From: Isurus oxyrinchus
Taxonomy: Eukaryota
Assembly: GCA_026770705.1 (NCBI GenBank)
Contig: JANJGN010000021.1
Location: 90,954,001 to 91,018,000 of the forward strand
DNA: 64,000 nt
Direction of reading: 5' to 3'
Positions 7,446-62,811 of this stretch are shown here, one piece after another. The position numbers and the translations under genes were made by a program. Positions within the stretch are counted from its first letter, which is position 1. Each line of letters opens with the position of its first letter. Below the pieces are notes generated by a model that ran no database searches, had not been told where the DNA came from, and was given only the letters and a program-made list of their open reading frames with translations.

Positions 7446-7481
7446 ATATTGACCAACTGAGAAAATGTCTGAAATATACAG
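7446..7481 (+). CDS. Coiled-coil micro-exon A1, 36 nt, (D)IDQLRKCLKYT
   Basis: TTTGACTTTCCAG|atattgac...tatacag|GTGAGA; phase 1-1, no stop, hydrophobic residues at 2, 5 and 9. Confidence 0.75.
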
Positions 7482-7654
7482 GTGAGAAACAAAAGAATCG
7501 TTTTTTAAGTTAACTGAGCATTTATGCTGCGAAGCTGCACTGATTCATTGAAGACTTCATTTGTACGTATCACCTATACTTAAATCATGCAAGCTAGTCA
7601 AAAAAGTGAAAATGACATAATAGGGACAAAACGTTTGGTAGACAAAGCTAGTTT

Positions 7655-8975
7655 GGTTTTGATCTTCCAGAATTCCCTAGATTGTAGAACTATCTGTGGG
7701 ATGGGAGTAGAAAATGTAAACCTGCTATTCAAGAAAGAAGGGAAAGGGGCAATCGGAAATTGCAGGTTTTTTAGCCAGCCACCAGTCGCAATGGGCTCAA
7801 ACCTGCAATTGGTAACTTAATAATGTGGCACGTAGAAAAACAGAATATTATTGGACAGGGATAACACGGGTTTACGGAAGGGAAATCATGCTAAGCAAGT
7901 CTATTAGGCTTGATATAATGTAAGCAATAAAGTGAATGAGGGAGGTTTCGTGTGTTTCTATTTTCAAAAATGTAAATATCCGATAAATTGACATACACAA
8001 GAGATTATTACAAAAGAAATGTCCCATGTGCTTGTGATTAACAGCTGGAATGAGGAGCGGTTAAGGGACAAAGAAAATAGAGTTGACAACTGGTAATGAG
8101 CAGGGTGCTGTAAAGTTTGGCGCTTGAGTCTCAGCATTTACAATCTGTGTCAGAGAGTTAGATCAGAGGCTGGGTAGTAATGTTTCCAACTTACTGATAC
8201 TACAAAGTTGGGTGGGGAAAAACAACATTGAAGATGTCATGAACAAGATTCAAAATGAATTAGACAGGCAAATTAATGGGCAAGAAGGTGAGAGTTGTGA
8301 TATAATGCCGAGGAATGTGTTGATATCCACTTTGGAAGGAAAGAGAAAAGCCAAATAAGCAGGTAAATCGTGGGAAACAGGAAAATGTTTGTACACAGAA
8401 AGGGCCGGTGTCCTCGGCCACGAATCACAGAAAGTTAACGTGCGGGTAGAGTAAGCAATTCATAAAACATATCACATGTTAACATTTAATAAGACAACGG
8501 GATACAAAACAAAAGGGATTGTACTGCAAATATGCATGGACTTGTGCGACCACACCTAGAGTTCTCTGTAATTTTTGATTTACTAAGCTAGTGTAGAAAA
8601 TTCTTCCCTTGGACGAAATGCATCATATGGCATTGCAATGATACCAGAGATTAATGAAAAGTCCAATGAGGAAAAATGAGTAGAAAAAAATTACCTTTTT
8701 TAGAGTCTGGAGATTCAAGGCGTTGTTTCAATAAAACATATAAAATCCTTCAGGAAACATTTGGAATCCTCCACCGCAGTGACTTGTAGTGAGCACCGTT
8801 GAGTATATTCAAGTCATCAGTGGACAATGTTTGAATAATAGTGGATTCAAGGAATATGAAAAAGGTGCAACAAGTGCAGCTGAAGTAGAAGAGCAACTAC
8901 GATCAAGCTGAATTTCGCAGCAGACTCAAGTTTCGATTGACTTCCTGATGATCCTATTTCTTATGTTTTTGTATT
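7655..8975 (+). mobile_element. Decayed CR1 LINE, RT plus 3' tail
   Basis: IFQNSLD...ENVNLLFKKEG (ORF 7587), CGACCACACCTAGAG (RPHLE), 3' tail TCCTATTTCTTATGTT. Confidence 0.8.
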
Positions 8976-9204
8976 CCAAATCGCAATTTTATTCTACTAT
9001 TGCTGGCAACACGTAGACAGATGACCTAACAAGCTTAAGGTTTTTTATTAGCTATGCTTCACGTTATCCTTTGGTAAACAACAAATGTTCCTCTCCACAT
9101 AGAATAGGGGCTAACTTCAGCACATTTTTCTGAAACCGCTAATTATGTTTCAACGGTACAAAGCACATTACTTACTGATCTCAAGGAGAAAGACATTATT
9201 TTCT

Positions 9205-9500
9205 CTTCATGGGTGGTTGGCTTTGGGGGAAAAGCCAGTATTGGCCTCCTATCCCCAGTTGCCCTTGAGAATGTTGTGGCATGTAGTCTTCCTGAACAGT
9301 TGCAGTCTATCTGGAAGAAGTACACGCACTGCAATTATAAAGGGAATTCCTGGATTTTGAAAGAGCTGCAATGAAGAAACGGTACAGTTACAAGTTGGGA
9401 TGTTCTGTGGATTCAAGCGGAAATTGAAGGCGGTGGTACCTCCATGCGTTTGCTGCCCTCGTCCTTCTAGGGTGTAGAAACCGTGGGTTTGCTGCTGAGA
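9205..9500 (-). mobile_element. 3' end of the second LINE family (CR1/L2 group)
   Basis: Reverse-complement similarity to the 3' end of the 47055-48570 element. Confidence 0.6.
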
Positions 9501-9796
9501 TTGTATGTGCATTGGTTTTAATTTCCCAGAATTCCCTGGTATCTGGAAAGGCCCTATAATCTTGAGAAATGGCGAATGTAATTCCTCTGTTCAACATAGG
9601 AGGGAGAGGAAAGTAGAAAGCTACAAGCCAGGTACCTAACACCTGTCTAGAGAAAACGAAGGAATAAAAGAGGGCATAGAGGGGCACTTAGCAATGCTCA
9701 ATGCAATCAAACAGAATTAACCTGCTTTTGCGAATGTTTGCCTCATGCATTATGGATGGAATTTTATAATAGGGTAGAATTTGGGGAATAGATTAA

Positions 9797-10425
9797 GGCC
9801 TGAATCTTAAGTTCTTCGGGCGGGTGCGATAGCTGGGTCTGGAAGTGGATGCAAAAAGCGCATCCATCCGCAATTGCCCCGGCACGCACATTTCACGCTG
9901 GCTGGCCCACTAACGGGCAGCCAGCGTGAAACGCGCATGGCGAAAGCCTCGGTGCTGCGGTGGGGGGAGCGGGAAAGGGGGAAGACAGGGTTGGGGTGGA
10001 GTGGTGCAGGAAGAGGGCAGGCGCCAACAAAAGTGAAGGTACAGTTAGGTGCTCCTAGCGAGCTCCCTGAAGGCAGACAGCTGCTGTGGAGCTACATCAG
10101 AGAGCTGCAGACCTGAACAGATTAAATGACAAGAAAGAAATGCAGCACCTTCAAGCACCTGAGGGCAGAACTCAGAAACCATCTGTCCCCAGATATCTTT
10201 TTCTTCTGATATTTCACCCTGGACATTTCATCCCTGCCTTGATGGAGGTTTCAGCGAAATTAAAGGCCGCCAAGCCCGTCCACCAACTGTAAAATCGATT
10301 TCAATTGCTTCCTTATTCGTCTTAATTGCGAAATAAAGTGCGAGGGCGCGATGACATCGGGACGGGCACCCGACATCATCTCACACGATTTCACGGATTG
10401 GGCACACGTGCATAAAATTCTGGCC
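9797..10425. mobile_element. Harbinger-type MITE, copy 1
   Basis: TIR GGCCTGAATCTT / AAAATTCTGGCC with TAA on both sides (3-bp TSD typical of PIF/Harbinger). Confidence 0.8.
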
Positions 10426-10874
10426 TAATTGTTGGTAAATGTGATGTTGTCCACTTGGAAGGAACAATGGAAAAGTCAACGTTATTTAAATCGAGAAAAA
10501 CTTAACAACTCTCTAGGAGGGTGGGATCTTCGTGTCCTGGTACACGAATCACAAAATGTTAGCCCACAGGAACAGCCAGTGTATGTGCATTGGTTTTAAT
10601 TTCCCAGAATTCCCTGATATCTGGAAAGGCCCTATAATCTTGAGAAATGGCGAATGTAATTCCTCTGTTCAACATAGGAGGGAGAGGAAAGTAGAAAGCT
10701 ACAGGCCAGGTACCTAACACCTGTCTAGAGAAAACGAAGGAATAAAAGAGGGCATAGAGAGGCAGTTAGTAATGCTCAGTGCAATCAAACAGAATTAACC
10801 TGCTTTTGTGAATGTTTGCCTAACACATTATGGATGGAATTTTATAATAGGGTGGAATTTGGGGAATAGATTAA

Positions 10875-11530
10875 GGCCTGAATCTTGCGTTCTTCGGGCG
10901 GGCGCGATGGCCGGGTCTGGAAGTGGATGCAAAAAGCGCATCCATCCGCAATTGCCCTGGCACGCACATTTCACACTGGCTGGCCAACTAACGGGCAGCC
11001 AGCGTGAAACACGCATGGAGAAAGCCTCGGTGCTGCGGTGGGGGCAGCAGGAAAAGGGGAAGACGGGGTTGGGGTGGAGGGGTGCGGGAAGAAGGCAGGC
11101 GCCAACAAAAGTGAAGGTACAGTTAGATGCTTCTAGCGAGCTCCCTGAAGGCAGACAGCTGCTGCGGAGCTCCGTCAGAGAGCTGCAGTCCTGGACAGAT
11201 TAAATGACAAGAAAAGAATGCACGAAACTGTGTCTATGCAGCACATTCAAGCACCTGAGGGCAGAACTCAGAAACCATCAGTCCCCAGATATCTTTTTCT
11301 TCTTATATTTCACCCCGGACATTTCATCCCTGCCTTCATGGAGGTTTCAGCGAAATGTAAAGGCCGCTAAGCCCGTCCACCAACTGTAAAATCGATTTCA
11401 ATTGCCTCCTGATTGGTCTTAATTGCGAAATAACGTGCGAGGGCGCAATGTCATCGGGACGGGCACCCGACATCATCTCACACAATTTCACGTGTCATCA
11501 GATCGGACTCACGTGCATAAAATTCTGGCC
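10875..11530. mobile_element. Harbinger-type MITE, copy 2 (created by the duplication)
   Basis: Same TIRs, same TAA TSD and same flanks as copy 1. Confidence 0.8.
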
Positions 11531-12325
11531 TAATTGTTGGTAAATATGAAGTTGTCCACTTGGAAGGAACGATAGAAAGGTCAACGTTATTTAAATCGAG
11601 AAAAACTTAAGAATTCTCTAGGAGGGTGCGATCTTCGTGTCCTGGTACACGAATCACAAAATGTTAGCTCACAGGAACAGCCAGTGATGTTGCCGTTTAT
11701 TGTAAGGGGAATGGTAGACAACAATAGCTAAGTGTTGCTACAATTGTAGAGGGCATTGGTAAGAGCAGATCTATAGTCCTGTGTGCAGTTTCGGTCTCTT
11801 TATTTAAGAAAGGGTATAATTGCATTAGAAGCAGTTCAGAGAACGTTCACTCAACTGTTTTCCTGCATGATGGTGTATTTTATAGGGAAAGAGTGGACAG
11901 GTAAAGGCTGCATCCATTGGGTTTAGAAGAATGAGACGTTATCTTACTGAAACATATCAGATCCTGAGGAAGTTGACAGGATGGATGCTGAAACGATGTT
12001 TCCCCTTATGGGAGAGACTGGAGGTAGAGGGCACAGATTAAAAATAAGGAGCCTCCCGTTTAAGACCCAGATGAGGGGAATCCATTTCTCTCTCAGGAGG
12101 CCGTGAGCCTGTGCAATCATGTTCCAGAGAGAGTGTTGATCGCAGCGTAATTCAATATTTTTAAGGCAGTTGCATAGGTTCTTCACTAAGAGGACAGTCA
12201 AAAGGTGCAGGGAGAAAAATGGAGTTGCGGCCACAATCAGATCAGCCATGATCTTATCAAATGGTGCAACATGCTCGAGGGGCTGAATGATCTATTCCTG
12301 TTCATAGTCCATATGGTCATACAAT
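11531..12325 (+). mobile_element. CR1 LINE 3' portion
   Basis: LEAVQRTFT-like DNA at about 11825 and CR1 3' UTR CAGATCAGCCATGATCTTATCAAATGG...GCTCGAGGGGCTGAATG. Confidence 0.8.
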
Positions 12326-13900: not shown

Positions 13901-14460
13901 GAAAAGTTTGGGTGGCTAGCATAGAACTAGGTCCCCGTTGTGTTACTTTAATTTACGATACATAAATAATCATCTGATTAGAGTAAATGATGAAGCAATA
14001 TCAAAATTGGCTCGTTTCACCTCCGTGAGTATCCCGTCTAATATTCAGGTCATGTTTAAGTTTATTTTAAATGGAGCTGGAGCCTTCTTTCCAACACATC
14101 AAATCTTCCATTCTACGAATTTCAATCGAAAGGGAAATCGGACCGGACATAAATCCAGTTTTGCACATGATGTTGCACGCTCCCCTGTAGAAGAACTGAT
14201 TAAAATTTCTTCACATATTTCTCATTGGAAGGAATCAAAATGCGAAACTAGAGATGCATTCATCAACATGTGTTGCTTTCTTCAGTCTATAATTTACTTG
14301 TTAAAAATGCCAATGTATTACTATATGCAGCACCTTGTCAAAAGATTACTATAATCATTCTTACCCCAAATGCTGAAAGTTTATAGACTTTGTTTGGCCA
14401 ACCGATTAATATATCATAGCGACTCTGTTTTAATAAAATAATGTTATATATACTACACAG

Positions 14461-14487
14461 AAGAAGCGTTCAGTGATAAAGAAAGGG
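14461..14487 (+). pseudogene. Micro-exon B1, 27 nt, (E)EAFSDKER, with inactivated donor (ATAAGT)
   Basis: TACTACACAG|aagaagcgttcagtgataaagaaaggg|ATAAGT. Same length, phase and pattern as the other B exons; the donor differs from GTAAGT only at +1. Confidence 0.5.
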
Positions 14488-15297
14488 ATAAGTGCACGAA
14501 CAGAAGCTTTTGAAAATATGATCAATAGGAACTGCTCTCAGCTCATATGTTTGCTTTTAAATTGATTGATGTTAGCCATGTCTGCCTCAGTGCTGATTTA
14601 ACCTTCTGTTCCCATTCATACAAATTATTACAACTACAATAGCCTGTTAAAAATAATTTATGATTAGGTAATATTAGATAAAAAAAAAGGTAATAGCATT
14701 CAGACAAAACAAAACTCGACAGATCTGCATAATGATAACGTGGGTGATTTTAAACCACACCCCCACCCCCTTTCTCTCGTTCTTTCATTCGTCCTTTCCT
14801 TAACTTATACTTGACTGCTGCTGAACGGGAGGCGTGTTGCCGTTTTCTCCTTGCAATTATTAGGGAAAACGCAAGAATGCCAAATTTCAAACGATCACAG
14901 CAATATGTACCACAGAAGAAAGCGCTGCTAATTATTTGACAAGTGGACTGTGATAGTCTGAGGCGTGTCCATGGAGATAACAGTGGGAAATGACAGGCTT
15001 CCCAAACTCCTACGTAATTCAACAAAATGCACAAAGGCACAAATTCCTTTGAGAACAGTTCACTTAATATGAATATATGTTGCGCCTAGCAACTGTAAAA
15101 GAGTCACGTTATGTTGATCGTAAAGTGGTTTTTATGGTACCTAATACCTATATATATACATCCAAAGTCAAAATACACTTTCCAGATGAAGCAGGTTAAA
15201 GTGCTCCCTTTCCCTATATACTTGAAGATTCTGATATTTTCACGTTCTATTAGACTCGCCTCTCCTATAAGAGTCGTTTGGTAGTACAGAATGTAAG

Positions 15298-18200
15298 TAT
15301 TGCTGACAAAGGAGTAACGTCAAAGCTTTTTGCCTTGCACTCACCAGACACTCATCAGGTTGGGCGAGATGTTGCAACCAGTCTTGAGCAAACTTTCCAT
15401 ATAAGCAGTGAAGGATTCTTTCTAAATTACCAAGACCATACAGAACTTGCATATCGATAACTATGTTGTATCCATGTGCTCCTTTGACATTCCAAGCCTA
15501 GTCACCAATTTTCCATTAAGGAAGAAGTATATTTTTGCTCTGCAACACTGTATCATTGGGATCTAGATCCCCCACTATTCCGGGAATCAGAATTCATTGA
15601 ACTTATGAACTCGGCAACTTGCACAGTTGAGTTCAACCTCAATAACACCATGCATGCCCAAATAGATGATGTTGCCATGGAATCTGCTCCAATCCGGCTC
15701 TCGCAAATATCTTTCTTGGTTTCCAAGAAAACGATGGAATGACACCAAAACTCCTATCCCTCACATATTTTTCATATTTGAATGATATGTTCGGTATATT
15801 TAAATCCAAAGCTGCATGTGATAATATCCATGCGTGCCATAATATGCTCCATGGTGCGTTCAAATTCATCTTTGCAATTGAGGAACAGCATAAGACATAG
15901 GAGCAGAAATTAGGCCATTCGGCCCATCGAGTCTTCTCCGCAATCCAATCATGGCTGATAAGTTCCTCAACCCCATTCTCCCCGTAACCTTTGATCCCCT
16001 TACCAATCAAGAAACTATCTATGTTGGTCTTATATACTCTCAATGACGTGGCCTACACAGCCTTCTGTGGCAATGAATTCCATAGATTCACCACTCTCTA
16101 GCTAAAGAAGTTTCTCCTCATCTCTGTTCCAAAAGGTCTTCCCTTTATTCTGAGGCTGTGCCCTCGGGTCTAGTCTCACCTACTAATGGAAATATCTTCC
16201 CCACGTCCACTCTATCCAGGCCTTTCAGTATTCTGTAAGTTTCAATCAGAACCCCCCTCATCCTTCTAAACTCCATCGAGTATAGACCCAGAGTCCTCAA
16301 ACGTTCCTCATATGTTAAGCCTTTCATTCCAGGGATCGTTCTCGTGAGAGGTCCAGAATATCTTTCCTGAGATACGGGGACCATAATTGCTCACAATATT
16401 CTAAATGTGGTCTGACCAGAGCCTTATAAACCCTCAGCAGCTTATCCCTGCTTTTATATTCTAGTCCTCTCGAAATAAATGCCAACATTGCATTTGCCTT
16501 CCTAATTACCGACTCAACCTGCAAGTTAACCTTAAGAGAATTTTGGACCAGGACTCCCAAGTCCCTTTGCACTCAAAATTTCTGAATTCTATCCCCATTT
16601 AGAAAATAGTCTATGCCTCTATTCTTCCAACCAAAGTGCATGACCTCACAGTTCCCCACGTTGTATTCTATCTGCTACTTCTTTGCCCATTCTCCTAACC
16701 TGTCCAAATCCTTCTGCAGCCTCTCCGCCTCCTCAATACTATTTGTCCCTCCACCTATCTTTGTATCATCTGCAAACTTAGCCAAGGTGCCCTCAGTTCC
16801 TTCATCTAGATCATTAATGTATAAAGTGAAAAGTTGTGGTACCAACACTGACCCCTGTGGAACTCCACTAGTCACTGGCCAGCATCCTGAGAAGGTCCCG
16901 CTTATCCCCGCTCTCTGCCACCTCCTAGACAGTCAATCTTCTATCCATGCTTGCATCTTACCTCTAACACCATGGTCTCTTATCTTAGTGAGCAGCCTTC
17001 TGTGCAGCAACTTGTCAAAGGCCTTCAGAACTCCAAGTAGATAACAATCATTGGCTCTAATTTGTCTAACCTATTCGTTACCTCCTCAAAATTCGAGCAG
17101 ATTTGTCAGGCGTGACCTCCTCTTGATGGAACCATGCTGCCTTTTCTCTATTTTGCCATACACTTCCAAGTATTCTGAAATCCCATCCTTAATACTGGAC
17201 TCTAAAATCTTACCAACGACCGAGGTCAGTGTAATCGGCCTGTAATTTCCCGTATTTTACCTCACTCCCTTCTTAGACAGTGGGGTTACCTTAGTGATTT
17301 TCCAGTCCTCTAGGGCCTTCCCTGACTCCAGTGATTCCTGAAAGATCATCACTAACGCCTCCACTATCACTTCAGCTATCTCCTTCAGAACTCTGGAGTG
17401 CAATCCATCTGGTGCATGTGATTAATCCACCTTCAGATCTTTCAGTTTTCCTAGCACCTTCTCCGTGGTAATGAACACCATACTGACCACTGCTCCACGA
17501 CTCTCTTGAACTTTGGATGTTACTCGTGTCTTCCACCGTGAAGACTGATGCAAAGTACCTATTCAGTTTCTCCGCCATTTCTCTGTTCCCTACTCCTTCT
17601 CCAGAGTCATTTTCCAGCTGCCCAGTTTCCACTTTTGCCTCTCTCTTACCCTTTATATATCTGAAAAAAACTACTGCAATCTTCTTTTATATTACTGGCT
17701 AGTTTACCGTCATATTTAATCTTCTCCCTCCTTATTTCTTTTTCGGTTGTCCTCTGTTGGTCCTTGTAGTTTTCCCAATCCCCTGGTTTCCCACGGCTCT
17801 TTGCTGCATTTTATGCTTTCTTTTTAGCTTTTATGCTATCCCTGACTTCCCTTGTCAGCCATCGTTGCCTCGTCCTCCCTTTAGTATTCTTCTTCTTCCT
17901 AGGTATGAATTTTTGCTGTGCCTCCCAAATTACTCCCAGAAACTCCTGCCATTGCTTTTCCACTGTCTTTCCTGCTAGGCTCATCTCCGAGTCAATTCTG
18001 GCCAGCTCCTAACTCATGCCTCTGTGGTTGCCTTTATTGAACTGTATTACCATTACATCTGATTCCAGCTTTTTCCTCTCAAATTGCAGAGTAAATTCTA
18101 TCATAATATGGTCACTTCCTCCGAAGGGTTCTTTCACCTTAAGCTCCCTTATCAAATCTGCCTTATTACACATCACTAAATCTAGAATTGCCTGTTCTGT

Positions 18201-19834
18201 AGTGGGCTCCACCACAAGCTGCTCCAAAAAGCCATCTTGTAGACATTTCATAAATTCCTTTCCTTGGGATCCACTGCCAACTTGATTTTCCCAGTCTACC
18301 TGCATATTGAAATCCCCCATGATCACTGCAACCTTACCTTTCTTACATGCCTTTCCTATCTCCTGGTGTATCTTGAGCCCACATCCTGACTACTGTTTAG
18401 AGGCCTGTACCTAACTCCTATTATGTTTTTTTTTAACCTTTGCGATTCCTCTACTCTATCCACACAGATTCCATATCATCTGACCCTACGTCATTTCTTG
18501 CTATCGATTTAATTTCATTTCATACTAAGAAAACAACCCCACCCTCTCTGCCAATCTGCATATTTTTCGATAGGATGTATATCCTTGGAATTTTAGCTCC
18601 CAGTCCTGATCCCCTTGCAGCTACGTCTCTGTGATGCCCACCAATCATAACTGCCAATTTCAATCTGCGCCACAAGCTCGTTTACCTTATTTCGTATACT
18701 GCTTGCATTCAGATGCAACATGAACCCCCTTTCCTTGACTTACTAGTTGAGAAACCTGCCAGCGGGTTCTCCACCATGGCCTACCGCAAGCCTACGTTCA
18801 CTGGTCAATATTGGGATTCGTACAGTTCCGCACACTATAAGATTGGTTTCTTTGGAAACTTTGTAAATAGGGTCCGAGCCATTTCTCAAATTTCAATCTT
18901 CCTGTTGAAATAGGGCTTTTCAAAGACATCCTGCTGGAAATTGGCTACACTGATCAGCTCATTTCCTGCTGTATATCATACATCTCATGAACAGGCTTAA
19001 AGCCGTCACTTTCAGCCCTGAAAACTGTCCAGTCTATCTCAGATTACCATGGAAGGGCAAGGTAACTCAAATAAATTAGCAACACGTGAAGCTAACTGTC
19101 TCACGCTGCTGTATGCAATAGCAGCATGAGTGGTATTCACTATTAGCAGAATGCTGCCATCAAGCCAAAAATACATTCTGCATATCACACAAATGAGTTA
19201 TGTGGTACATGAATTTCCGTGCCACTGTGTCTGTAGGTCGAATGTTCCAAAGACTGGCAGATCATATAAAAATGCATGTACCAGCCACTTACCACGGGTG
19301 AAAATTGTACCCAACGAGATCGTATTTACAAAATTCAAAACACAATGACCAACATTAGAAGTGATTCTGCAATTGGGAAACATTTGCTAAATAATCCTCA
19401 ACGTGCAATAAATTATGATGACAACCAATTCACGATTGTCAGTCATGCTTGCACTGTGGCACTTTTGCGTGTACTGGAAGCTATGTGCACACAGGGCCAG
19501 TTCTTTGCAAGCAGAAAGAACATGTGCAAACATTGCACCTTTTTTAGCTAAACAAAATAAACGTCAGCCATTCGCTGACTCACTCCTCACGGTAATGCTT
19601 TGGTCAATCAGCGTCAAGCTGCCAGGCTTAAATTTCATATGATGTTTGGCAGTTAACTGTCAGTCATCATCAATTGTTGCATTAATCATGGCAACGCCTT
19701 GCCAGCTTGCCACCTAATCAGCACTCCCTTCACATACAGAATAAATTGTTGTTCTCTTTACATTTGGTGTTCTTGTTAAGTGGCCTGATAAGTGCAAGCT
19801 GTAAAGCTTTGTCATGTCTCTTTTTTCAGCAATA
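15298..19834 (+). mobile_element. Penelope-like element (RT plus GIY-YIG region), interrupted by CR1, with inverted terminal repeat
   Basis: MCSFDIPSLVTNFPL; QIDDVAMES...ALANIFLGF; PFLDLLVEK...YRKPTFTGQY; SDSAIGKHLLNNP. 15298-15348 is the reverse complement of 19784-19834. Confidence 0.85.
15889..18721 (-). mobile_element. Relatively young CR1 LINE (APE endonuclease, RT, 3' tail), 5'-truncated and pseudogenised
   Basis: IMGDFNMQVDWE...AILDLV...GGSDH; TSGVPQGSVLVPQLFTLYINDL...KFADDTK; LVRPHLEYCEQLWSPYL; starts with the (CATAAGA) tail on +. Confidence 0.95.
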
Positions 19835-19859
19835 TTTTCCAGTAATCTTTTAAATAGAT

Positions 19860-21005
19860 TTCTAACCACTTACTCACCTTGCAAGTTTGATGCCTCAATT
19901 GTCGTCAACTATCAATATGAAAGGTGCCCATTCTAGATCAATTGCCATGGCAAGGGAAAGCTTCGCAAACATTTGATCAACATGTTAAGCAAGCAGTTTA
20001 AATCTGCTACTATGGAGCAGATATTCTAGTAGTGCCGTTAATCTGAAAGGACACTGCTCCTACTACACAATCGTACAACTCATTGCATGAATTACAGTGG
20101 TGGTGTGATCCCAGGTATGTAGGCTATATGTCCCAATGAAGGGCTGATCGAATCAATAGGCATGTTGCTTCACTTGCTTGTAATAGGTAAAGCACAACCT
20201 GTACTCCATCTTGCTGCACTTGCAAAACACCAAGCCAAACACACAATATTAGATGTGATTCCAAAAGCAGGCATATTTGCTGAATAATTGCGCTAATAAC
20301 TATTCTAACAACCAATCTAAAATAATCAGTCGGTCTCGTAACATGGCTTACTTTAAGTGACATTTATTCATAAGCAGGGAACAATTCACTGCAAACAAGA
20401 GGAATATGTTCAAGCATTACACCATAGTTTTTAATTACCCAGGAACTGTTCCCCTTTGTTTTTACAAAGACAATGTCTCGGACGATTGGAGCCGGCTTGC
20501 CAACCAATAAGCACCCTTTTTTTTCCTACCGTTTAAATTGACCTGATCATTTGAAATTTTGTATTCTTGATTATCTCCTGTTGAATACCAGATAAAAGAA
20601 ATATATTTCGCTTTTTAGCAATGTTAAAGTTCTCTGCTACACCGTTTTTTTTTCTTTTGTTATTCCTTTCTGTTTCCTTCCTTTTCCTTTCTGAGGTGTA
20701 TTTCTCTTTTCTTATTTCCATTCTTACTTTCTTGTCCGAGAGCATGTGTTAGTCCTTGTGACATGTTTCAATTTAGTTTACACTTTTCTGACAATGGGCT
20801 GACAATATTTTTTCCATAACGTTTGATCAATCATAAGAACCTTATATAGCCCCAATCAGGAAAGGCGTTACTCCACCAACACAATTGTACAATTTAATAT
20901 ATAATTTACAGTGCCAGCGTCATGCCAGGTATGTCGGCCACATGTCCTAGTGAAGGGCTAATCAAATCAATTGACGTGTTGCTTCAGTTGTTTGTAATAA
21001 CCAAA
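19860..21005 (+). mobile_element. Further decayed Penelope-like fragments (about 19860-20630 and 20860-21005)
   Basis: Repeats the 3' part of the upstream PLE (GAAAGGTGCCCATT...TTGCCATGGCAAGGG; CCAGGTATGTAGGC; ATTAGATGTGATTC). Confidence 0.65.
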
Positions 21006-21817
21006 GTGCTCTTTAAAAATAGAAGATGAATCTCAATTACAGAAGTGTAGCACGTACAGAATTTTCCTGTTGCATCAACACCATTTTTTCCAAAATTAAT
21101 TTAGGTAGGGCAAGTACTAAATCTTATTGCAATTAATTAAAGCTGATTACAAAGTACGTGCCATATGTGTGTGAAAAAATAATCTGGATCAAATTAAAGT
21201 TTACATAGAGCAAAGCATGATGGGGATGCATTTCTCCAGCACCCACGGCAAAACATTCTGAAATTAAATTAATTATTTATTTCTCACATACTGTCCGAAA
21301 TTTCCTTATTCGATTTTTCCTACGCATGAACATTTAGATTAACTGGAAATGCTTTGCGAATTGACGAATTTGGAGGTAACCGATAACCCAAGGAGGGCAC
21401 TAGCAAACAAACAGCTTCACAGTTATATTCAAATCAGTTACATGAATGATGTGGCCTGAAGTATTATATTCGATATGCTCATTTTCCCCAGCTTCTGAGG
21501 CATTTTTTTATCCCAAGATATCTGCTTAAGTTTTCATGTTGTAAAATAAGACAACCACATGGACATTTCTATTGGCTGAACAAATTTCACTGCTTACGCA
21601 GAGATCAGTGCTGTTAGAGAGATACAAAGTTCTTCGTAGGTATGGCTTGTCTTCCCCACACCAAAGGTGTGATCGTGCATACATTAAACTGCTGCTGCAA
21701 ATTTAGGGATATGAGATGATACCGCTGAAACAAATCTCCTTTTATCGATCTCCTGCCATAACGTTCGGACACAAAGCAGCAATATTAAGATTAATTTTAA
21801 TAGCTGTTGCTTTTCAG

Positions 21818-21853
21818 AACTAAATACTGTGAAACAAGCTCTACAAAAGACAC
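21818..21853 (+). CDS. Coiled-coil micro-exon A2, 36 nt, (E)LNTVKQALQKT
   Basis: GTTGCTTTTCAG|aactaaat...aagacac|GTGAGT; phase 1-1, open, L2/V5/L9. Confidence 0.8.
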
Positions 21854-22207
21854 GTGAGTAAAGGCGTGTCTGGGTTAACTAAAATGTTTGAATTAAAATA
21901 CAATTAGATTGCGCTGCACCTGTGAAAGATTTCAGGATTCTCTTTTTGAGCGAAGAAATGCAGAGATAATTCAGTTTAAAAAATGTAAACAAAAATCGGC
22001 AGGTTAAGTCTGAATTGATGGGGAGATACTTAGGCACCTTTTGCAGATTCAGAACAATCTCTACTTGTCAGTGCAACAGTTCACCATAACTAGTTTTTGG
22101 ACACCATATCCAGATACTTTCTGGGGTTTCAAGACTTGTATGGTTTTTAAAATGTATTCTTAACAACTAAAGCTTTTTGCATGTTTTGTGCTATTTGTTT
22201 ACCTCAG

Positions 22208-22237
22208 TAGAAGAAAACCTGAAACAAAGAGAGAAAG
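22208..22237 (+). CDS. Coiled-coil micro-exon B2, 30 nt (L)EENLKQREK, or 27 nt from 22211 (Q)ENLKQREK
   Basis: TTTGTTTACCTCAG|TAG|aagaaaac...gagaaag|GTATAT; NAGNAG acceptor, phase 1-1. Confidence 0.75.
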
Positions 22238-22969
22238 GTATATGTTCGCAAAATGTTACGATTCCTAAGTTTCAAAATTGTATTTAATTGCTGCTACTTA
22301 TGAATGCTTCCATAAAAATGATTATTATTTCATTTGGAGCTGATGCATAAAGAAGTTTTAGAAGCAATCCAATGTTTATTTTTTTGTCGTGCAGCAACTC
22401 TCTACCTTTGGTCGATCACTCTGGTTTTCACGCCATTGATTGCAGATGTCACTCTAACTTCTTCCTTCCTATGCTTTTCTTTCTATGGCGTTTCTGTATT
22501 CATTTGCAAATATTTCTCTTATAGATGACCAGTGACAATTGTTGTACAAGCTGCATATCCGTATTCGCAAAAGAAACTTTATCAATTACTTTAGAGAGTG
22601 GTTGATGCATGCAAGCGAATTCTCTCCTGACCCAAATTACATGGGCTTTGTGCAACACTCATTTGTGAAAATAGCAACTTGGGAAGGGTTACCGCCAGTA
22701 ATGTAGTGTATCTGAACACCATCACAGAATGACCAATTAAATAATAATTCTCACAATGTTATCACTTTGTTGTCTTTGGCTGTGCTTTAAAAGGAGCTCC
22801 CCGATGCTCAATTGGCGTTCATTTTCACCTTGTTCCGAATAATATGAAAGCTCAGGTTTTTCTTCAATTAGATTTTGTCAGTTGCTTGACAATTTAGGCC
22901 CGAGCAACATCATAACTGATATAACTATTATACTTTGTGCAATGAGAGAAAGAATATTTTCATTTATGA

Positions 22970-23220
22970 GGAAACTTTCATAACCATTGAATGTTCCAAC
23001 ACACTGTCCAGCAAATGAGCATTTTGTAAAGTTTACTCAATTTTGCAATCTAGGAAGAACGGCCGGTGGAAGTTCCTACACTTTGTGAAGGCTGCACAAT
23101 CATTGTTTTGTGGTGCTAATTGAGGAATGATATTGGCTAGGACACCACGGATAACTCCTCTGCTATCCCAAGGTGCCATAGAACCCTTCACACGGGGCCC
23201 CGACTTTAAGGTCCCAAGGG
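22970..23220 (-). mobile_element. DeuSINE-like SINE fragment
   Basis: ATATTGGCTAGGACACCACGGATAACTCCTCTGCT is the reverse complement of the conserved central motif also seen at about 52555-52600. Confidence 0.5.
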
Positions 23221-23685
23221 AAATAGGGATCATTGTTCGTCATATTGCTATTGTTATGAGTACTATTATTGAAACATCCGTTATATTTCTAATGCAGAAA
23301 ATATATTTTTTGGGTGGTTTCGACCCAACTCGATGATAATTGTTTTTATTATCACCTCCATTGTAAAGCAGACTTGCTATATGCGTCAAAGTATGAGCAA
23401 TATAATGGTCATCTTTACTTTTTTGTTTTGCCCAAGGAAAAACATGACTGAAAGCCAGTTAGCATAGTCAGATACGGGGAACATTATACTACTTTCGAAA
23501 GAAAGAATTGAACATGTTATAACATATGCATTAACATGTAGACTACGACCATTTCTTAGAGTAACTACTGAGCTATCTATGGTAAATGACTCATCAGAGT
23601 GGAAAATTACAACTGTTATTAATTGTTAAGCGCAATGGATTATACCGTATCTAAGCCAAAAGTAACAATACACTAATATTCACAG

Positions 23686-23727
23686 ACATCTTGAAACCTC
23701 GAAGAAATGTCCCCACACAAACATCCG
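23686..23727 (+). CDS. Candidate micro-exon, 42 nt, (D)ILKPRRNVPTQTS (Pro-containing, A slot)
   Basis: CACTAATATTCACAG|acatcttg...acatccg|GTAAGA; phase 1-1, open, strong donor but weak pyrimidine tract. Confidence 0.5.
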
Positions 23728-24754
23728 GTAAGATGTTTACCTACCTGAATGATATAATCCGATTACATGTTTATGAAACGTTGCTAAGTTTGCATTCAAT
23801 TATTTCACAGACTCGCATTGTGACAATCGAATTGTACAGCACCTTAAGTGGACCAGCCACGCACATCTAGAGGCTGGTTCCTCTGCAGTGAGCAATTCAT
23901 TCTCTAATGCACCAGAACCTTTCCATTATGTGCAAGACAGAAGTGGTGGAATTATTACCACTTGCCTGAAAGAATATAACTCCAACAATACTCAAAACTC
24001 TCCACACCATCCAGAACAAAGCAACCCGCTCGATTGAAATTTTACCCAGCAACTGAAACAATCAATGCCCCCACCAGAGCTGCAAAGTTACAACTTTTGT
24101 TGGGGGCCATCTACAAGACGCAATGCAACAAATCTCGAAGCATCAGGTGATCCCAGAAACCTGGCTGCAGAATTCCGTAACAAATATCAGGGATGGAAGA
24201 AGCTTAAAGTCTATGCTGGCTTTATTGGTAGTATTATAAAACAAGGTAGGACATAGCAGAACTGACTCCAGTCAAATTAAGGCCCAAAGACCCCCGTACC
24301 ATCTTCTATCAAGAACCTGCCAGTCCAGCCAACAAACCAATGCCACACCCGCCGACACACCTGGGTGAATGTCTCACACAATTCATACAGGCAGGCAGAC
24401 ATTAGACAGAAATTTGCTTGGATGATTGCGGCTACAAAAATACTAAACTAGTGAAGCACCAGGGTATCCAACCCTGGTCCTGGAGAGCTCCAATCCAGTT
24501 AGTCTTTTCAGTCACCTGTTTCTAAAGATTGGGAATACACATCGGTTATCATTCAATGAAGCAAGTAATCAGTTCAATTAAGAGAACCCTGGTCCTTAGC
24601 AGCTGAATTTACAGATGTTCCCAATCATATTTTGGCCCCAAATGATCTTTAAATTACTTAATTTAACAAATCATCAGCTTAATTGATCACAATGCAATTT
24701 ATCCAAGTCTTAGGTTAGTGATTTAATGATGACTTCTACAACCTGCTGGACTGA

Positions 24755-28200: not shown

Positions 28201-30900
28201 CTGTGCAGGAGCGCAGAAGGAAAGGGAGCAAGGAGGTGAAACGGGGTGATACTTCAAGGCAGTGACTGGAACTGGAGAGCCATTAGAGGGAAGGGAAGGA
28301 GCATGACACAGGGATGTGGACAGGGCAAAGGCCCAAACCAAACAAAAAGGACCCAAAAGAGAGTTTGGGATAGAAAGAGGTCCCAGAAGCAAGTACCAAA
28401 GAGGGACAAAGGCAGGGAATAGTGATAGATCCTATTTTATCAGGAAAAAGAACAAAAGCAAAGTAAAAGACTCCAAGTTAAAGAAGGAGCTGCGAGAAGC
28501 TGACTTGAAGCAAAGCGGGATCGAGGGAATTCCAGAAGATCCAAGAAGGAAGCCAAAGATTGGGACGCCATATTGCCGCTAATGAGGGTAACAGGGCGCT
28601 TATGAAGCAGCGGCGTTCAGTTTCACATGGCCGAAGATCTGGACGTCTGCTTGGAAGATGAAGCTTGAGTGCCCTCGGAGACCCAGAAGGCTAGAGTGAA
28701 ATGCTGATTTGGATGCTCGTTGAACTGTCCAACTGGGAGAGACATTTGGAGAGAATTCAAAGGCAAGTTCTTCAAATGAGGAGATTTGAAACCCTCGTTC
28801 CAATTTCAGTGAAACAGGTTAGCTCAAGAGACAGCAAGTGTCTAGGTGAGTTGTTAAGAAATCCGTAGGATCTGAATTGGTCGCATTTGCCATTTACTTT
28901 GGAGTGTGTTGTGCCTGACCACAATTCGCAGTTGCTTCAGATGTACCACGTACTTACCCTGAAAATTACAGTGTGAGGAAAATATAGTGAATTGCTTTAT
29001 TTTTCCGGAATTGGTATGTGTCTGTAAAGAGAATGCAGGGGTGAAGGAATAGCGAATGCTTGAATCATTTTTTTTCTGATTGTATTGAGATCTTTTCACC
29101 TTTTTGTCTGGTGTAATATAATTAATCTTTCTTTTTTAATGTTTTATTCTTTGTGTCAAAAGTTCATGAGCAGATTCCTGTGAATTTGTTCAAGAAGTTT
29201 CCTCCACGATTTCAAAACAAATTTAGGATCTATCAGTCCAGGTTCCCCTCTGGAACCTGACTTGTCAAGTAGAAACATCACCTGGGTTCGTAGCACTTTG
29301 TACATCTTTTGCACTGTCAATGCCATGCTAGGTTCATTGACAGTTTCTGGACTTGTAGATCTGAGCACAGTCTCGGAAACACTTAATTAAGCCTCTGAAT
29401 CTGTCTCTCCATGAAGTCATCAATCTCTCGATGGAGAGACACACATCCTGACAAGATGGAGATAGCAGCTCTCATGACCTCGAGGGGCTCCTGGGCTGAA
29501 CATGTCATGGCCACCATGCAATCTGGAATTTCTGCCAGATCGCCACTAACCTCCATTTGGTCATCTGGTATGAGTGAGCTGACGGAACTTTCCAGAGGCT
29601 CACCCCCTGCCTTGGGACCAGCAGTTTCCTGGTGTCCCATACCCCTCTAAGATTCAAAGTCCTATGAAATCACAGCTTCTGATGATTGTACAGTGCTCCA
29701 CCCAGTTATTACAACTGGCTACGCAAACACAGCAAGCTGCCTATAACTGAGCTGATGCAACCTGCTGAACAAAGATAGGACAATGCACTCTCTGAGGTCC
29801 GCTGCTCCCCCTCAGTGAACAATGGTGTGTCCTCAGGATCGTAGGACAACCTGGATGAGAAGTTGCGTGATGGATAAAAATAATGCTGAGAGCATATTTA
29901 CAATGAGTAGCCGAACAGTAACAGTCAAACACGGGGCATATCACGAGGGGAACGAAGGTGGAGATACAGAGGGTACGCGACTTAAACCATCATCCCGTCC
30001 CTACCAAATTTCTACACACCCGTTGCCGAAATTGGGTCCCCTTCATTCCATGACCAAGCACCATCCTTCCTCTGCCAACGAACTGGGCTTGAACATGCTA
30101 TCATCATAACGATGAGGTCCGCTAGATTCGGCACTCCACCACCACACTTTTTCTAAGACATGTGTACATCACTAGCTGATTTCTGCTTGCCCATAGCTAC
30201 CTTCCTGAAGTGCTGCATTCCATGTCGTGTAAGTACACCCAAAGTGCTGTTAAGGAGTTCCAAGATTTTGACCCAATGACAGTAAAGGAACGGTGATACA
30301 GTTCCAACTCAAGATGACGTGTGATTTGGTGTCCAACTGGCAAGTGATTGTTAGGGAGAGTTCACAGCCGTTGTTTTCCTTCTGTTGTAAAGATAAATAC
30401 ACATTGATCAATCTAAAATATGAATGGATCATGCAGGTTTTATCACCTCTGATCATGCAGCACTGCATTTGCGGCACGGCTCATCTCCCAAGTGCCCATC
30501 ACAGCCAACATGCGCTCGTCACTGACAGACTTGCTGGAAGACAATAGTGCTGTGAAAATGTTGTTTTGACAACAGGCAATTCCTCTTATATGCCTAAACA
30601 CACATTGCAGACACAGCCCAAACACACCAAGTACATAGTCTCCCCTAGTTATAAGTTCTCATTGTCATGTTGGTTCCTCAATCGCCTCTGCTGAGTATAG
30701 AAGGTCACCCATGCTCGGCCGAACACTGTAGCCAGTTCCTGCTCATGCGTGCCCGAGTACTGACCACGGCTGTCAGATCTTCCGGGTTTTTCCTATTATA
30801 TGAGGTTTCCTCATGCCATTTCACTGGGAGGGAAACTCCCCCCGTTCCCTGACGGCCTGGAGGACGGCACACAGGGATTCATGTGAACCGTGGGACCATG
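25220..30900. mobile_element. Second decayed PIF/Harbinger: transposase (+, about 25780-26800) converging on a Myb/SANT gene (-, about 30870-29300), split by an LTR element
   Basis: PVVLKVTVTLKFEASASVQGPIKDL (HARBI1-like PVAVKVTAALNFYATGSFQ), GFP, KSWLMT, CLDWSAG; minus-strand TAVVSTRARMSRNWLQC at about 30770-30720. Confidence 0.7.
27330..29295 (+). mobile_element. Truncated LTR retrotransposon (Gypsy-like): internal 3' remnant plus LTR at about 27974-29295
   Basis: Purine-rich PPT-like GAGGGACAAA precedes TG at 27974; the LTR ends in ...GGGTTCGTAGCA; purine-rich U3 with two repeats of about 68 bp at 28060-28190; interrupts the Harbinger element. Confidence 0.55.
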
Positions 30901-32062: not shown

Positions 32063-33279
32063 ATTATAGCAGGATTGAAAAATATCTGTGGGCGAAATTA
32101 GTGCTGGTTTCTACAGTGCTTACAACGAGCACAGACTTACAGGGACAGGGACAAAGTCATTCAGGTTCAGGGCGTTTCAACAAACTGTCAACCTGATAAA
32201 TAAGATTAACATGCAACACAAATGTCACATCGATTGTAGAGATTGCAAACTTTCTTGACAAGTAGATTATTGCGGAAAAGTACAAAGGAAATAATTATTG
32301 CAATGGGCCTGAATTCTTGCTTATGGCCACCTTGAATAGAATTTGAAATCTGAAGAAGGAAGAACCTAAGATGAAGGTATAGAGAAGTTAAATTGATGAA
32401 TGACCCTAATGACACAATGAGAGCAAAAGTCAAATCCCTTTTGAGTAGTTTAAACTAACCGTGGGAGTGAAACAACTTGTTCAGGTGAAACATCCGTCTC
32501 ATTTTACGGTCGGAAATCGGCCCCGCTGCTCTCTCAACTATAGGTAAAATATGACGTGATAAGGTCGCGCCGGCAAAACTAGACGGCAGCCTCTAAAATT
32601 ACTGTAGGCGAGTCGGCACCGAAATTAGAAGCACGCCCGCCATTTTTAAAACACTAATTAACCTGAAATTAAGCTTATTGAAGGGACACTTGAACGCAAT
32701 TTCTTGCTCCCTCTGCCTCCGAGATCGGATGAAAAAAAACATGGGAGTGCTTTACAGCGGTTATAACGAGGCTGCACAAGGTTAGAAGAAAATGTCTGCC
32801 ATCGAGACCCTGGTTGCATATATGGGCGGGTGGAAGTCGCAGTTGGTTTGATTTTGAGAGCCCCCAATTCACCTCCCACCCACCACCACCGCCCACTTCC
32901 CCCCTCCACCGCCCCCACCCCCATACACACACACAAACGCACACAAAAGTACATTGAGCCCCCGACTACCGGGTGATAAATACTGCTGCTGGTGTGGAAA
33001 TCAGATTCAACGAGAATGTAGAACGGAGATCGTTGGATAGAAATTAATGTTTTAATCGGTGGATAAAGGGTCTCCTGCCACTCCTTTTCATGTTCAGACT
33101 GAAACTAAATTTTATCAACTGCATTTTTTTCTGATAATATTTTGACTTCATCTGTTTCATTGCAGCAAGTGACGTGCTTCGAATACAATTCAGTAAAGTA
33201 TCAAATTGATGTATTAATATCTGATCAGCTACGATTATTAGGAATGAAATTTCCAAGCTTCATCTACACTGGTAATATG

Positions 33280-35146: not shown

Positions 35147-35170
35147 TAAATAAGATCGCTCAAGTGAAAG
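35147..35170 (+). CDS. Coiled-coil micro-exon (B slot), 24 nt, (V)NKIAQVK
   Basis: TTTACTTTATTTGTAG|taaataagatcgctcaagtgaaag|GTAATA; phase 1-1, open. Confidence 0.65.
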
Positions 35171-40010: not shown

Positions 40011-40037
40011 AAGACCAGCTGAAGCAAAAAACGGATG
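40011..40037 (+). CDS. Coiled-coil micro-exon B3, 27 nt, (E)DQLKQKTD
   Basis: TTATTGCTTCTTGCAG|aagaccag...acggatg|GTAAGA; phase 1-1; similar to B2 (ENLKQRE vs DQLKQKT). Confidence 0.8.
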
Positions 40038-50147: not shown

Positions 50148-50171
50148 AATTGAACAAATGTCAAGAAACAG
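50148..50171 (+). CDS. Coiled-coil micro-exon A4, 24 nt, (E)LNKCQET
   Basis: TTCTCTATTTCCAG|aattgaacaaatgtcaagaaacag|GTGAGG; phase 1-1. Confidence 0.8.
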
Positions 50172-54848: not shown

Positions 54849-54875
54849 AGAATCGTATGTTTCAAAAACAGACAG
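54849..54875 (+). CDS. Coiled-coil micro-exon B4, 27 nt, (E)NRMFQKQT
   Basis: TATTTCTTACTTATAG|agaatcgt...cagacag|GTAAGA; phase 1-1. Confidence 0.8.
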
Positions 54876-56116: not shown

Positions 56117-56143
56117 AACTAGAAAATCATATTAAAATGTCAG
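56117..56143 (+). CDS. Coiled-coil micro-exon A5, 27 nt, (E)LENHIKMS
   Basis: TTTGTTTGTTCCACAG|aactagaa...aatgtcag|GTTTGT; phase 1-1. Confidence 0.75.
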
Positions 56144-58632: not shown

Positions 58633-58659
58633 ACAAACAGATTGAAATCAAAGACAAAG
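58633..58659 (+). CDS. Coiled-coil micro-exon B5, 27 nt, (D)KQIEIKDK
   Basis: GTGTATTTTTACAG|acaaacag...gacaaag|GTAACA; phase 1-1. Confidence 0.75.
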
Positions 58660-60770: not shown

Positions 60771-61449
60771 TATCATACCTGAAGAAAGCTTGAATCAATT
60801 TGCTTACATGACGCTTGGTGCAGTTGTCAAAAAAATGTAAGTGGCAAGAGAGCGTTCTGTCAGAAGTGACAATGAACACTTTCTTGTTTGTATCCATGTG
60901 GTCACTCTTCCAGTTCCTGTCCCAATGTCACCAATGTGTTCGCTTCTTCACTCAATAACTGCGATGCATCTGCCATCAGAAAACGTATGATTTTCAAAGT
61001 TAATTGGCAACACTTGGAAGGCTGCAAGGACATTTCATCCTGAAGTGCCCACAATTATTGCTGACAATCATGCTTTGTTTCTGGAGATTTATTGCACTGC
61101 GATTTGTGCCCCCATTTTTCCCTATACTCAATCCATTATACAGGGAATGTTGACAGTAGCAACACTATAATTTCCTGCTTCAATGTCATAACAATAGAAA
61201 CAGCAGCACAGTGAGCATCTCGTTCAATTTAAGTAGGTTGAAAAGCACATTTAAATAGATCGCATATTAGAGCTCCAATATATCGTTAATCAGTGCATCA
61301 TCAGGGTGACAAATAAAGGACGCCTCTTACTGGCAAGTTGCTTGATCAATAAAGATCCTGCTATAAATCAAAAGTCGCCTCCGGCTATTTGCAAATAATT
61401 GCAATGCCTCATAACAATTACGGGTATCCAAGAATCATTGATGTGCTTG

Positions 61450-62278
61450 CTAATGGAAAATCAACATGAACTCATTAACTGTATCTGTCAAAAGTTCAAG
61501 ATTAGGGTTATCTGTCAAAGCAGTTGATATTTGGTTCCAACATTCCACCGACTTTTGCATCAGTTTGGAATCAATGTATAGAGTGTCCAGTTGAGAGTAG
61601 ACGTAGCCTAATTGAACAGATTGTTGGCCATCCTGTTTGCTGCTGCCTTCATCTGATTCATAAGGGCTGTCGCATTTAAAGTTCTTATTATCTTTCATTA
61701 ATTTTGACAAAATGTATTCCTTCTGTAAACCTGTCAAATGTTCCATTTTCCTGAATATTTTTTCACTTGAAAGAGATTTTTCTGAGACTTCATCCGCCCA
61801 TATAGATCCTAGCGAGTATTGAACTGGAGTTCTATCGACGCAGTGGATAGCTAGCATCCATGCCTCTGAGCCAGAAAGTCCAGGTTCAGGTCCCGCTCCA
61901 GGACCTTATGGCCACAGAAGGTGTACTCATAAAACGGGTAGCCAAGTTTCTTATCAATCTGTAAATTCTTCAAAGAGCCTCCTGGGCACCCATGCTTGAT
62001 GTGGAGTGATGGCCATTAAGCCATAGCCTCTGGTGAAAGACTCGCGACCTATTCCAGGAAGCTAGTTATGAAAACAAGCAGAAGAACATCCTTTGTCTAC
62101 CTTAGGCATCATTAGAGGCATGAAAGCCAATAACTAAGTATTGAGCTTCAATGATCTGGATATCACTGTCATATAATGCACGACCTATATCTAGGTTTGA
62201 TACCGCTCGTTTTGTGTAAGTAATGAACAGAAATGCCCATGGGTATCGTTTCAGAATCGTCCTTCTATGGTACTGCAG
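61450..62278 (-). pseudogene. Unidentified coding relic (168 codons after SINE removal)
   Basis: LQYHRRTILKRYPWAFLFITYTKRAVSNLDIGRALYDSDIQIIEAQY|SLGSIWADEVSEK...NEFMLIFH is continuous in frame once 61815-62136 (SINE plus one TSD) is removed. Confidence 0.45.
61823..62136 (+). mobile_element. tRNA-derived SINE with TSD
   Basis: Box A-like GACGCAGTGG, box B-like GGTTCAGGTCCC; TSD AGTATTGA at 61815-61822 and 62137-62144. Confidence 0.75.
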
Positions 62279-62775
62279 TTATCAATGTTAAATTCAACCC
62301 TGGGCAAATTGTCATCACTTGATCGACCTAATGCCTAACAGCTCGTCAATATATAATCACAGCTATTTTAGTGAAATCTACAAGGGCAGTAGAAATTTTT
62401 ATTTAAATTAATCTGTAGAACACATGTTTTGTATCCTTGCATTGTCGCTAAAGAAATAAGTCTGGGGCTTCAATCGCCACAATTATAAGACACTGAATGC
62501 AGATGCACATTTCCAAGACACTAGTGAGAACCTCAGGCATGGAAAATGTCATGAACAGTCACCATAACTGTTATATTGAAATACGGATTAAATTAGTTGG
62601 ATTTTCGAGATGTAACGTTAAAGGGCTATGTAGTGACTGCATATCACGAAAGTTCTCAAGATTTGTTTTTTGAACCCATAAGATCTGCAAGTCAAAAGTC
62701 GTATTTTAAATCACAGTGGAATCTATAGTTTTATCACATTGATTACTCGACAGTCGTTCGCTTCCTCTTTTTCAG

Positions 62776-62811
62776 AAAAAGCAGAATTGACTAAAATGCT
62801 ACAAATTTCAG
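62776..62811 (+). CDS. Coiled-coil micro-exon A6, 36 nt, (E)KAELTKMLQIS
   Basis: CTTCCTCTTTTTCAG|aaaaagca...aatttcag|GTAAAT; phase 1-1, L5/L9. Confidence 0.8.

Follow-up and report, generated by a model that had tools for sequence, protein, structure and literature searches.

A 64-kb stretch of Isurus oxyrinchus DNA (contig JANJGN010000021.1, here C21, positions 90954001–91018000 in a 4.98-Gb genome; hereafter the window) is the interior of one 430-kb gene in the major histocompatibility complex (MHC) region. We conclude, with somewhat better than even confidence, that this gene encodes a soluble, jointed coiled-coil rod of at least about 1,370 residues, built from at least 122 phase-1 micro-exons, with a B30.2 domain at its C terminus. 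The micro-exons lie at defined positions in a set order and alternate between two classes, A and B; the encoded residues have a 3.5-residue hydrophobic periodicity; a B30.2 exon follows them; the locus sits among MHC genes; and exon pairs, larger blocks and whole genes have all been duplicated in the family. Judged by its sequence, the gene resembles a hugely extended butyrophilin (BTN) or chicken BG tail with a B30.2 tip and appears to fail membership of the BTN, BG and TRIM families.

Extent and exon content of the gene

We traced the gene by micro-exon-aware chaining of two catshark proteins. The S. torazame model XP_072329363 (P0014, 730 residues) gave 60 chain members in order across the 5′ half, 56 of which are micro-exons from −26 kb on, and S. 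canicula XP_038671249 (P0002, 945 residues) gave 70 in order across the 3′ half and ends in the same B30.2 domain (65% identity). The gene runs from about −35.3 kb to +394.8 kb relative to the window, positions outside the window being given as extrapolated window coordinates; the genomic span examined covered 600 kb upstream and 400 kb downstream, with micro-exons over most of it. In total we count 122 micro-exons encoding 1,157 residues with no stops, 14 of them in the window (Table 1). Seventy-one are 27 nucleotides (nt) long, 28 are 36 nt, 12 are 24 nt and 11 have other lengths, only four of the 122 being 21 nt. This count follows the removal of three weak chain members (290597, 385930 and 377724) and the addition of nine rescued exons, and it is likely a floor because several stretches of the orthologues have no exon found here.

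The sequence-only reading of the window had listed 12 micro-exons, and all of them are present, on the plus strand, in phase 1/1 and with lengths of 24, 27 or 36 nt. A de novo scan for short open phase-1/1 exons, with approximate splice weights, recovered 11, and alignment to the orthologue recovered the twelfth (14461–14487). Under a strict filter (A-rich; 24, 27 or 36 nt) that was set after the exons were known, the scan returned 10 candidates on the plus strand versus 0 on the minus strand in the window, and 63 versus 0 over the whole gene. When all lengths from 18 to 45 nt were admitted, the histogram peaked at 27 nt (35), 36 nt (19) and 24 nt (9); counts for all remaining lengths were 5 or fewer. 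The S. torazame model covers all 14 window exons in order, with 102 of 138 residues identical (74%). Two of the 14 are additional to the earlier list, 23686–23727 (42 nt) and 33166–33192 (27 nt). They lie between the second and third B exons and make the order A B A B x y B A B A B A B A, which breaks the proposed strict alternation of six modules inside the window. That reading had itself held that additional exons interrupting the alternation would count against it, and the orthologue model contains them.

The 5′ end of the gene bears on whether its product is anchored in a membrane. A 63-nt exon located 1.4 kb upstream of the start exon is conserved before the start exon of an upstream paralogue; both copies lack an ATG and carry an in-frame stop. 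Searches of 1.06 Mb by tblastn found no match to immunoglobulin (Ig), RING, B-box or PYRIN domains, except in a separate downstream RING gene, and no transmembrane (TM)-like phase-1 exon was found in the 91 kb before the start exon, under a scan that detected the TM exon in four of five true butyrophilin loci. The encoded protein is likely soluble, as judged from its gene, because of the in-frame stop upstream of the ATG and because no Ig, RING, B-box, PYRIN or TM exon was found upstream. A protein search with the start exon as the query returned no matches. An acidic tyrosine motif in the N-terminal peptide, which is conserved both in catshark and the upstream paralogue, may resemble an SH2 docking site.

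Alternating exon classes and the coiled-coil register

The alternation of the two exon classes is visible without any reference to labels. An exon resembles the next but one more than it resembles its neighbour across all 122 exons (P = 0.0002 for protein and for DNA), across the 97 downstream exons (P = 0.0002 for each) and among the 14 window exons only (P = 0.043 for protein, 0.014 for DNA). When the downstream exons were classed by the previously noted window exons, the class switched at 75 of 96 steps (P = 1e-4). These results bear out the claim of two alternating classes. Similarity within classes (0.28 for A–A, 0.85 for B–B) also exceeded that between them (−0.73), as had been proposed, ranking 2 of 924 splits (the best split and its mirror), in a comparison that is circular in that the class labels derive from the same residues.

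The classes correspond to two starting points in the heptad. The 12-residue A exons are hydrophobic at positions 2, 5 and 9 in 70, 93 and 78% of cases, and the 9-residue B exons are hydrophobic at position 4 in 94%; this places the first residue of A exons at heptad position g and that of B exons at e. The hydrophobic period peaks at 3.48–3.52 in this gene and in both catshark orthologues. Of 99 proline-free junctions, 57 are in register, 16 are of the stutter type familiar from coiled coils and 26 are other (P = 0.0002); a further 22 junctions touch a proline exon. With these starting points, a 12 + 9 pair would return exactly to register, a 9 + 9 pair would add a stutter, and selection on the coil likely favoured A and B staying together. 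The earlier proposal of a three-heptad module stands in that a 36 + 27-nt pair gives a continuous a/d pattern, and falls short in that only two of the five complete A-to-B pairs in the window, which measure 21, 21, 18, 17 and 18 residues, have that length; the sixth A exon is partnered by an exon at 64439, beyond the window end. Over the gene, 48 such pairs comprise 19 of 21 residues, 16 of 18, 5 of 17 and 8 of other sizes.

All exons are in phase 1/1 and have lengths divisible by 3, so that duplication or loss of any one of them would keep the frame. Because of the splice consensus, by which exons end in G (101 of 122) and start with A (94 of 122), the split codon is Glu or Asp in 84 of 122 exons, and an acid would in this way be placed at the e/g salt-bridge positions. 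An AlphaFold prediction for S. torazame P0014 (single sequence; mean predicted local distance difference test score (pLDDT) 64, predicted template modelling score (pTM) 0.23) shows long helices with low-confidence breaks at linkers, at residues 246–257, 433–451 and 534–550, the first of which is the 42-nt exon of the window. The proline- and glycine-containing linker exons are likely to be hinges.

The B30.2 domain and related proteins

The terminal exon matches Pfam SPRY at 3.5e-11, with PRY not detected; its best match in the PDB is human BTN3A1 (8e-23 over residues 4–163), and the nearest B30.2 in the database is that of the basking shark. In B30.2 trees, the shark, ray, skate and chimaera proteins form one clade on a long stem (100/100 with 11 rows, 100/99 with 9 rows), and five shark butyrophilin B30.2s group elsewhere (87/87), mixed with a RING protein, on an open backbone. 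In Pfam, SPRY/PRY is the only match of the family's RefSeq models from ray, catshark, skate and chimaera. RING and B-box Pfam domains are absent in 13 family proteins (P0002, P0014, P0018, P0027, P0030, P0031, P0053, P0023, P0180, P0047, P0175, P0172 and P0177), and the TRIM coiled coil (PF25600) has no match in P0002 or P0014.

Butyrophilins (BTN/BTNL) share with this gene a heptad tail of phase-1 micro-exons that leads to a single terminal B30.2 exon, and they share its MHC linkage; unlike them, this gene has no IgV or IgC match (tblastn with BTN Ig domains, 1.06 Mb) and no TM-like exon before the start. A true butyrophilin on the same contig (C21:107.59–107.62 Mb) consists of an IgC exon, a 120-nt TM exon, nine 27-nt phase-1 tail exons and a B30.2 exon. 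Because a true shark butyrophilin has these nine tail exons, a headless-butyrophilin origin is plausible from the gene structures.

Chicken BG and the soluble BG-tail 'zipper protein' are alike in their long coiled-coil tail, many split-codon micro-exons, copy-number variation and MHC location. By contrast, BG has 21-nt exons (27–37 in described alleles), an IgV domain and a TM segment and no B30.2, whereas this gene has an intact B30.2, no Ig match or TM-like exon, and 21-nt exons in only 4 of 122 cases. The sequence-only reading had contrasted its two-exon unit with the one-heptad BG exon. This contrast is overstated: the B exons share the register of BG exons, in which the first codon is e and the fourth is a (PMC5938342, in part), and the true butyrophilin on the same contig likewise has 27-nt phase-1 tail exons. 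By its sequence the gene may be regarded as a variant of the butyrophilin/BG heptad-exon design.

TRIM proteins with B30.2 (TRIM39, TRIM21 and 'zinc-binding protein A33-like') are similar in being likely soluble, with a coil and a C-terminal B30.2, whereas this gene has no RING, B-box or TRIM_CC Pfam match. Three TRIM N-termini matched only the downstream RING gene (tblastn, 1.06 Mb), and the TRIM-like names in databases seem to have been carried over from the B30.2 domain. Enterophilins, rodent intestinal leucine-zipper proteins with a B30.2, are soluble and have up to about 30 heptads; they are mammalian and far shorter. Other long proteins (P0051, P0061, P0092, P0093 and kin) similarly run from a coil of 1,000–2,600 residues into PRY-SPRY, with no Ig or RING, but they form a separate B30.2 clade (99/98) and several start with an apparent signal peptide (by eye); their architecture is likely convergent with that of the shark family.

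Duplication and exon skipping

The sequence-only reading had proposed that the gene grew by tandem duplication of an exon pair. In a paralogue on C34 (C34:7421500–7462500), a 13.5-kb unit, introns included, has been tripled at 92–94% identity, and each copy holds one strong 36 + 27-nt A + B pair, weak extra candidates not being common to all three. Likewise, a near-identical 21-residue pair occurs twice in the catshark orthologue and once in this gene. Within this gene, two internal repeats are significant, a block of six exons at lag 22 and a core of five exons at lag 7, each with P = 0.003 under a null that keeps exon class and length, and the flanking DNA of the 5-exon core is similar at a 20-kb spacing. 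Pair duplication is thus part of the history, whereas blocks of 5–6 exons, one of them at an odd lag, and whole genes were duplicated as well. The introns in the window have no common similarity around the exons, as had been claimed.

Skipping of A + B pairs, the other proposal, found no support. An alignment of 21 isoform models from four family genes (two ray, one catshark, one chimaera) contains ten internal deletions, of 12, 11, 23, 8, 8, 6, 9, 9, 9 and 7 residues; none matches the 17, 18 or 21 residues of a pair, and their sizes point to single skips. These isoforms are automatic RefSeq models of relatives, with exon borders taken from the models and not from DNA; most of the ten deletions are linker-like, and the 23-residue deletion is not coil-like.

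Genomic setting

The gene sits between MHC class II and class I on C21. MHC class II alpha lies at 79.7 and 80.8 Mb, 17 of 19 class I matches lie at 93.9–100.3 Mb, and an exon of the PPP1R11 family lies at 91.88 Mb, 0.5 Mb from the gene. Among the best candidates listed, butyrophilin IgC exons (PF22705) lie at 95.6–113.9 Mb, and none of the 21 listed BTN IgC matches falls within 89.5–91.5 Mb. The contig carries more than 100 B30.2 exons. Our literature searches, which left subscription journals mostly uncovered, found no published description of this gene family. In a catshark MHC gene table, a family member (LOC119975528) stands in a run of large plus-strand loci before NRM, DHX16 and PPP1R11 (PMC10751288, in part); it is tabulated without comment, and the main text of that source, by a term search, has no use of butyrophilin, BTN, TRIM, B30.2, zinc-binding or coiled.

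A tandem paralogue occupies the span between 537.5 and 125 kb upstream of the window, and its B30.2 (at about −126 kb) is full of stops. A single 740-kb gene was ruled out by this stop-riddled remnant and by the separate start exons at −537.5 and −33.8 kb, because of which we read the span as tandem paralogues. The upstream paralogue is, from its sequence, possibly a BG-like rod lacking a B30.2, with coil exons apparently under purifying selection. It also contains a roughly 20-kb multi-exon block in three copies (−494, −474 and −454 kb).

Interpretation and alternatives

We propose that a short N-terminal peptide leads into the jointed rod and then into the B30.2 domain, which is likely held out as a predicted dimeric, ligand-binding tip. 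Rod and B30.2 would be arranged in the manner of a butyrophilin tail, minus the ectodomain and the membrane anchor.

Several observations weigh against this proposal. No single database model spans the gene from the start exon to the B30.2, the two catshark halves overlapping by about 110 residues, and no RNA read or contig was found joining any window exon in the sparse read sets guessed to be RNA. Conservation is the sole evidence that the untranslated region (UTR) exon joins the start exon. In the coil, 26 of the 99 junctions need a shift other than 0 or a stutter, and polar residues predominate at two of the six core positions in the 21-residue unit (30% and 14% hydrophobic), so that the coil may be locally unstable. 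The family B30.2 clade does not group with shark butyrophilins and has one teleost TRIM as its sister, itself retrieved by similarity and possibly placed by long-branch attraction. Only one of nine tail exons of the true butyrophilin resembles an exon here beyond shuffles (P = 0.006, uncorrected). Finally, the ratio of nonsynonymous to synonymous substitution rates (dN/dS) between the upstream paralogue and this gene, 0.24 over 26 paralogous exon pairs (bootstrap 0.16–0.38), counts in favour of the proposal but is biased down by the picking of pairs by similarity.

The alternative that survives best, which we regard as unlikely yet serious, is that rod length is nearly neutral: frame-safe micro-exons would pile up by unequal crossing-over in a repeat-rich 5-Gb genome, with selection only removing register-breakers. 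Family members range from about 220 residues (chimaera) to more than 1,300, paralogues have recent triplications, about 47 residues of the orthologue have no exon found here and one donor looks dead, all of which would fit such drift. However, exon order is largely the same in two catsharks and this genome over more than 110 exons, and residue identity in the window stands at 74%.

A somewhat less probable explanation is that the rod is mainly cytoskeletal, as a tropomyosin-like or trafficking scaffold, with no immune-sensing role. The intact B30.2 here, conserved with catshark and found among the many B30.2 exons of the MHC contig, argues against such a role, whereas the upstream paralogue argues for it, as its coil exons seem to have stayed under purifying selection next to a stop-riddled B30.2. 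In addition, a soluble BG tail displaces tropomyosin or affects actin–myosin (PMC5938342 and PMC8813856, each in part), and enterophilin-1/SNX1 alters EGFR surface levels (PMC13749957, in part).

It is improbable that the gene is a true membrane butyrophilin or a TRIM with missed 5′ exons. The BTN3A1 match, the 27-nt phase-1 exons of true shark BTN tails and the lack of an observed RNA 5′ end would agree with this, but two paralogues have an in-frame stop ahead of the ATG, the searches of the gene yielded no Ig, TM, RING or B-box and the listed BTN IgC matches all lie outside 89.5–91.5 Mb. Least probable of all is a pure array of two-exon modules with its length tuned by A + B pair skipping: the alternation and register statistics and the C34 pair triplication agree with it, whereas the linker exons, the 5–6-exon block duplications and the absence of any pair-sized isoform deletion do not.

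Three points give the family wider interest. Annotation fragments these genes under misleading names (A33-like, TRIM39-like, golgin-like and trichohyalin-like), and because of this splitting a large family has gone unrecognised next to the class I framework genes of the shark MHC. The gene is also a clean natural case of exon structure mapped onto coiled-coil register, with recent pair duplication in a paralogue. If it is a soluble B30.2 carrier, it bears on the origin of BTN, BG and TRIM proteins by swapped head, coil and B30.2 modules in an ancestral MHC. A broader and doubtful extension is that these genes form a chondrichthyan, MHC-linked family of soluble 'orphan' B30.2 proteins that predates the chimaera–shark split, with adjustable rods of up to about 170 nm (a helix rises 0.15 nm per residue) and two exon classes encoding register; their coils might pair with butyrophilin tails or with B30.2-less paralogues, supplying or withholding the sensing domain in trans. 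Such a trans arrangement has been left open for chicken BG (PMC8813856, in part).

Other features of the locus

Table 1. Exons of the gene. Positions are window coordinates unless given on C21.
Feature	Position	Strand	Basis
Likely 5′ UTR exon, 63 nt	C21:90918713–90918775	+	Conservation with upstream paralogue
Start exon, 132 nt, −33.8 kb, ATG in good context	C21:90920219–90920350	+	
11 micro-exons upstream of window	From 26 kb before window	+	Orthologue chain
A-type micro-exon, 36 nt	7446–7481	+	De novo scan and orthologue alignment
B-type micro-exon, 27 nt, AT donor, possibly skipped	14461–14487	+	Catshark model alignment
A-type micro-exon, 36 nt	21818–21853	+	Scan and orthologue chain
B-type micro-exon, 27 nt; tandem acceptor, 30-nt form from 22208 possible	22211–22237	+	Scan and orthologue chain
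Proline-containing linker exon, 42 nt; predicted helix break	23686–23727	+	Orthologue chain, structure prediction
27-nt exon, weak donor, 9/9 residues identical to catshark	33166–33192	+	Orthologue chain
B-type micro-exon, 24 nt	35147–35170	+	Scan and orthologue chain
A-type micro-exon, 27 nt	37477–37503	+	Scan and orthologue chain
B-type micro-exon, 27 nt	40011–40037	+	Scan and orthologue chain
A-type micro-exon, 24 nt	50148–50171	+	Scan and orthologue chain
B-type micro-exon, 27 nt	54849–54875	+	Scan and orthologue chain
A-type micro-exon, 27 nt	56117–56143	+	Scan and orthologue chain
B-type micro-exon, 27 nt	58633–58659	+	Scan and orthologue chain
A-type micro-exon, 36 nt	62776–62811	+	Scan and orthologue chain
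97 micro-exons downstream of window	To about C21:91344260	+	Orthologue chain
Terminal B30.2 exon, +394.3 kb	C21:91348264–91348784	+	Pfam, orthologue match

Exon 14461 is followed by ATAAGT; a very weak GC donor 6 nt further on is the sole in-frame substitute close by. Because the donor reads AT and not GT, this exon may be skipped in this assembly; the change could reflect a species- or allele-specific exon loss or an assembly error. Over 14300–23900, two read sets guessed to be RNA gave zero cover on the exons, and two DNA read sets were about 97% alike (a relative), one of which spans base 14488. Three read sets guessed to be RNA contain parts of the B30.2 stretch; contigs on this exon are sparse, and one read set also covers intron.

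Among rejected candidates, a 36-nt exon at 28810–28845 with a good donor does not appear in the orthologue chain and falls within a low-copy repeat that recurs at −159.9 kb, and the other window scan candidates (40246, 44323, 44776, 56400 and more) have no place in the orthologue chain.

Further related loci surround the gene. Between it and the upstream paralogue, 96–74 kb upstream of the window, the start exon recurs in a decayed third copy, together with a few A-type exons; this is likely a partial duplicate. The 3′ exons of another paralogue lie 600–563 kb upstream, where no B30.2 was found to follow, and at C21:89.67–89.72 Mb there is a short paralogue of 50 kb whose B30.2 is intact. The RING-finger reading frame, on the same strand 64 kb downstream of the B30.2 exon, belongs to a separate gene. 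On C34, the tripled unit lies upstream of a related B30.2, and four more related B30.2 exons are present. The introns of the window contain a 1.1-kb tandem duplication (9502–11690; 92–96% identical), inside which no exon was found, and two inverted repeats, at 37993–38151 (57 nt, 88%) and at 63032–63274 (45 nt, 93%), the latter 220 nt past the last window exon.

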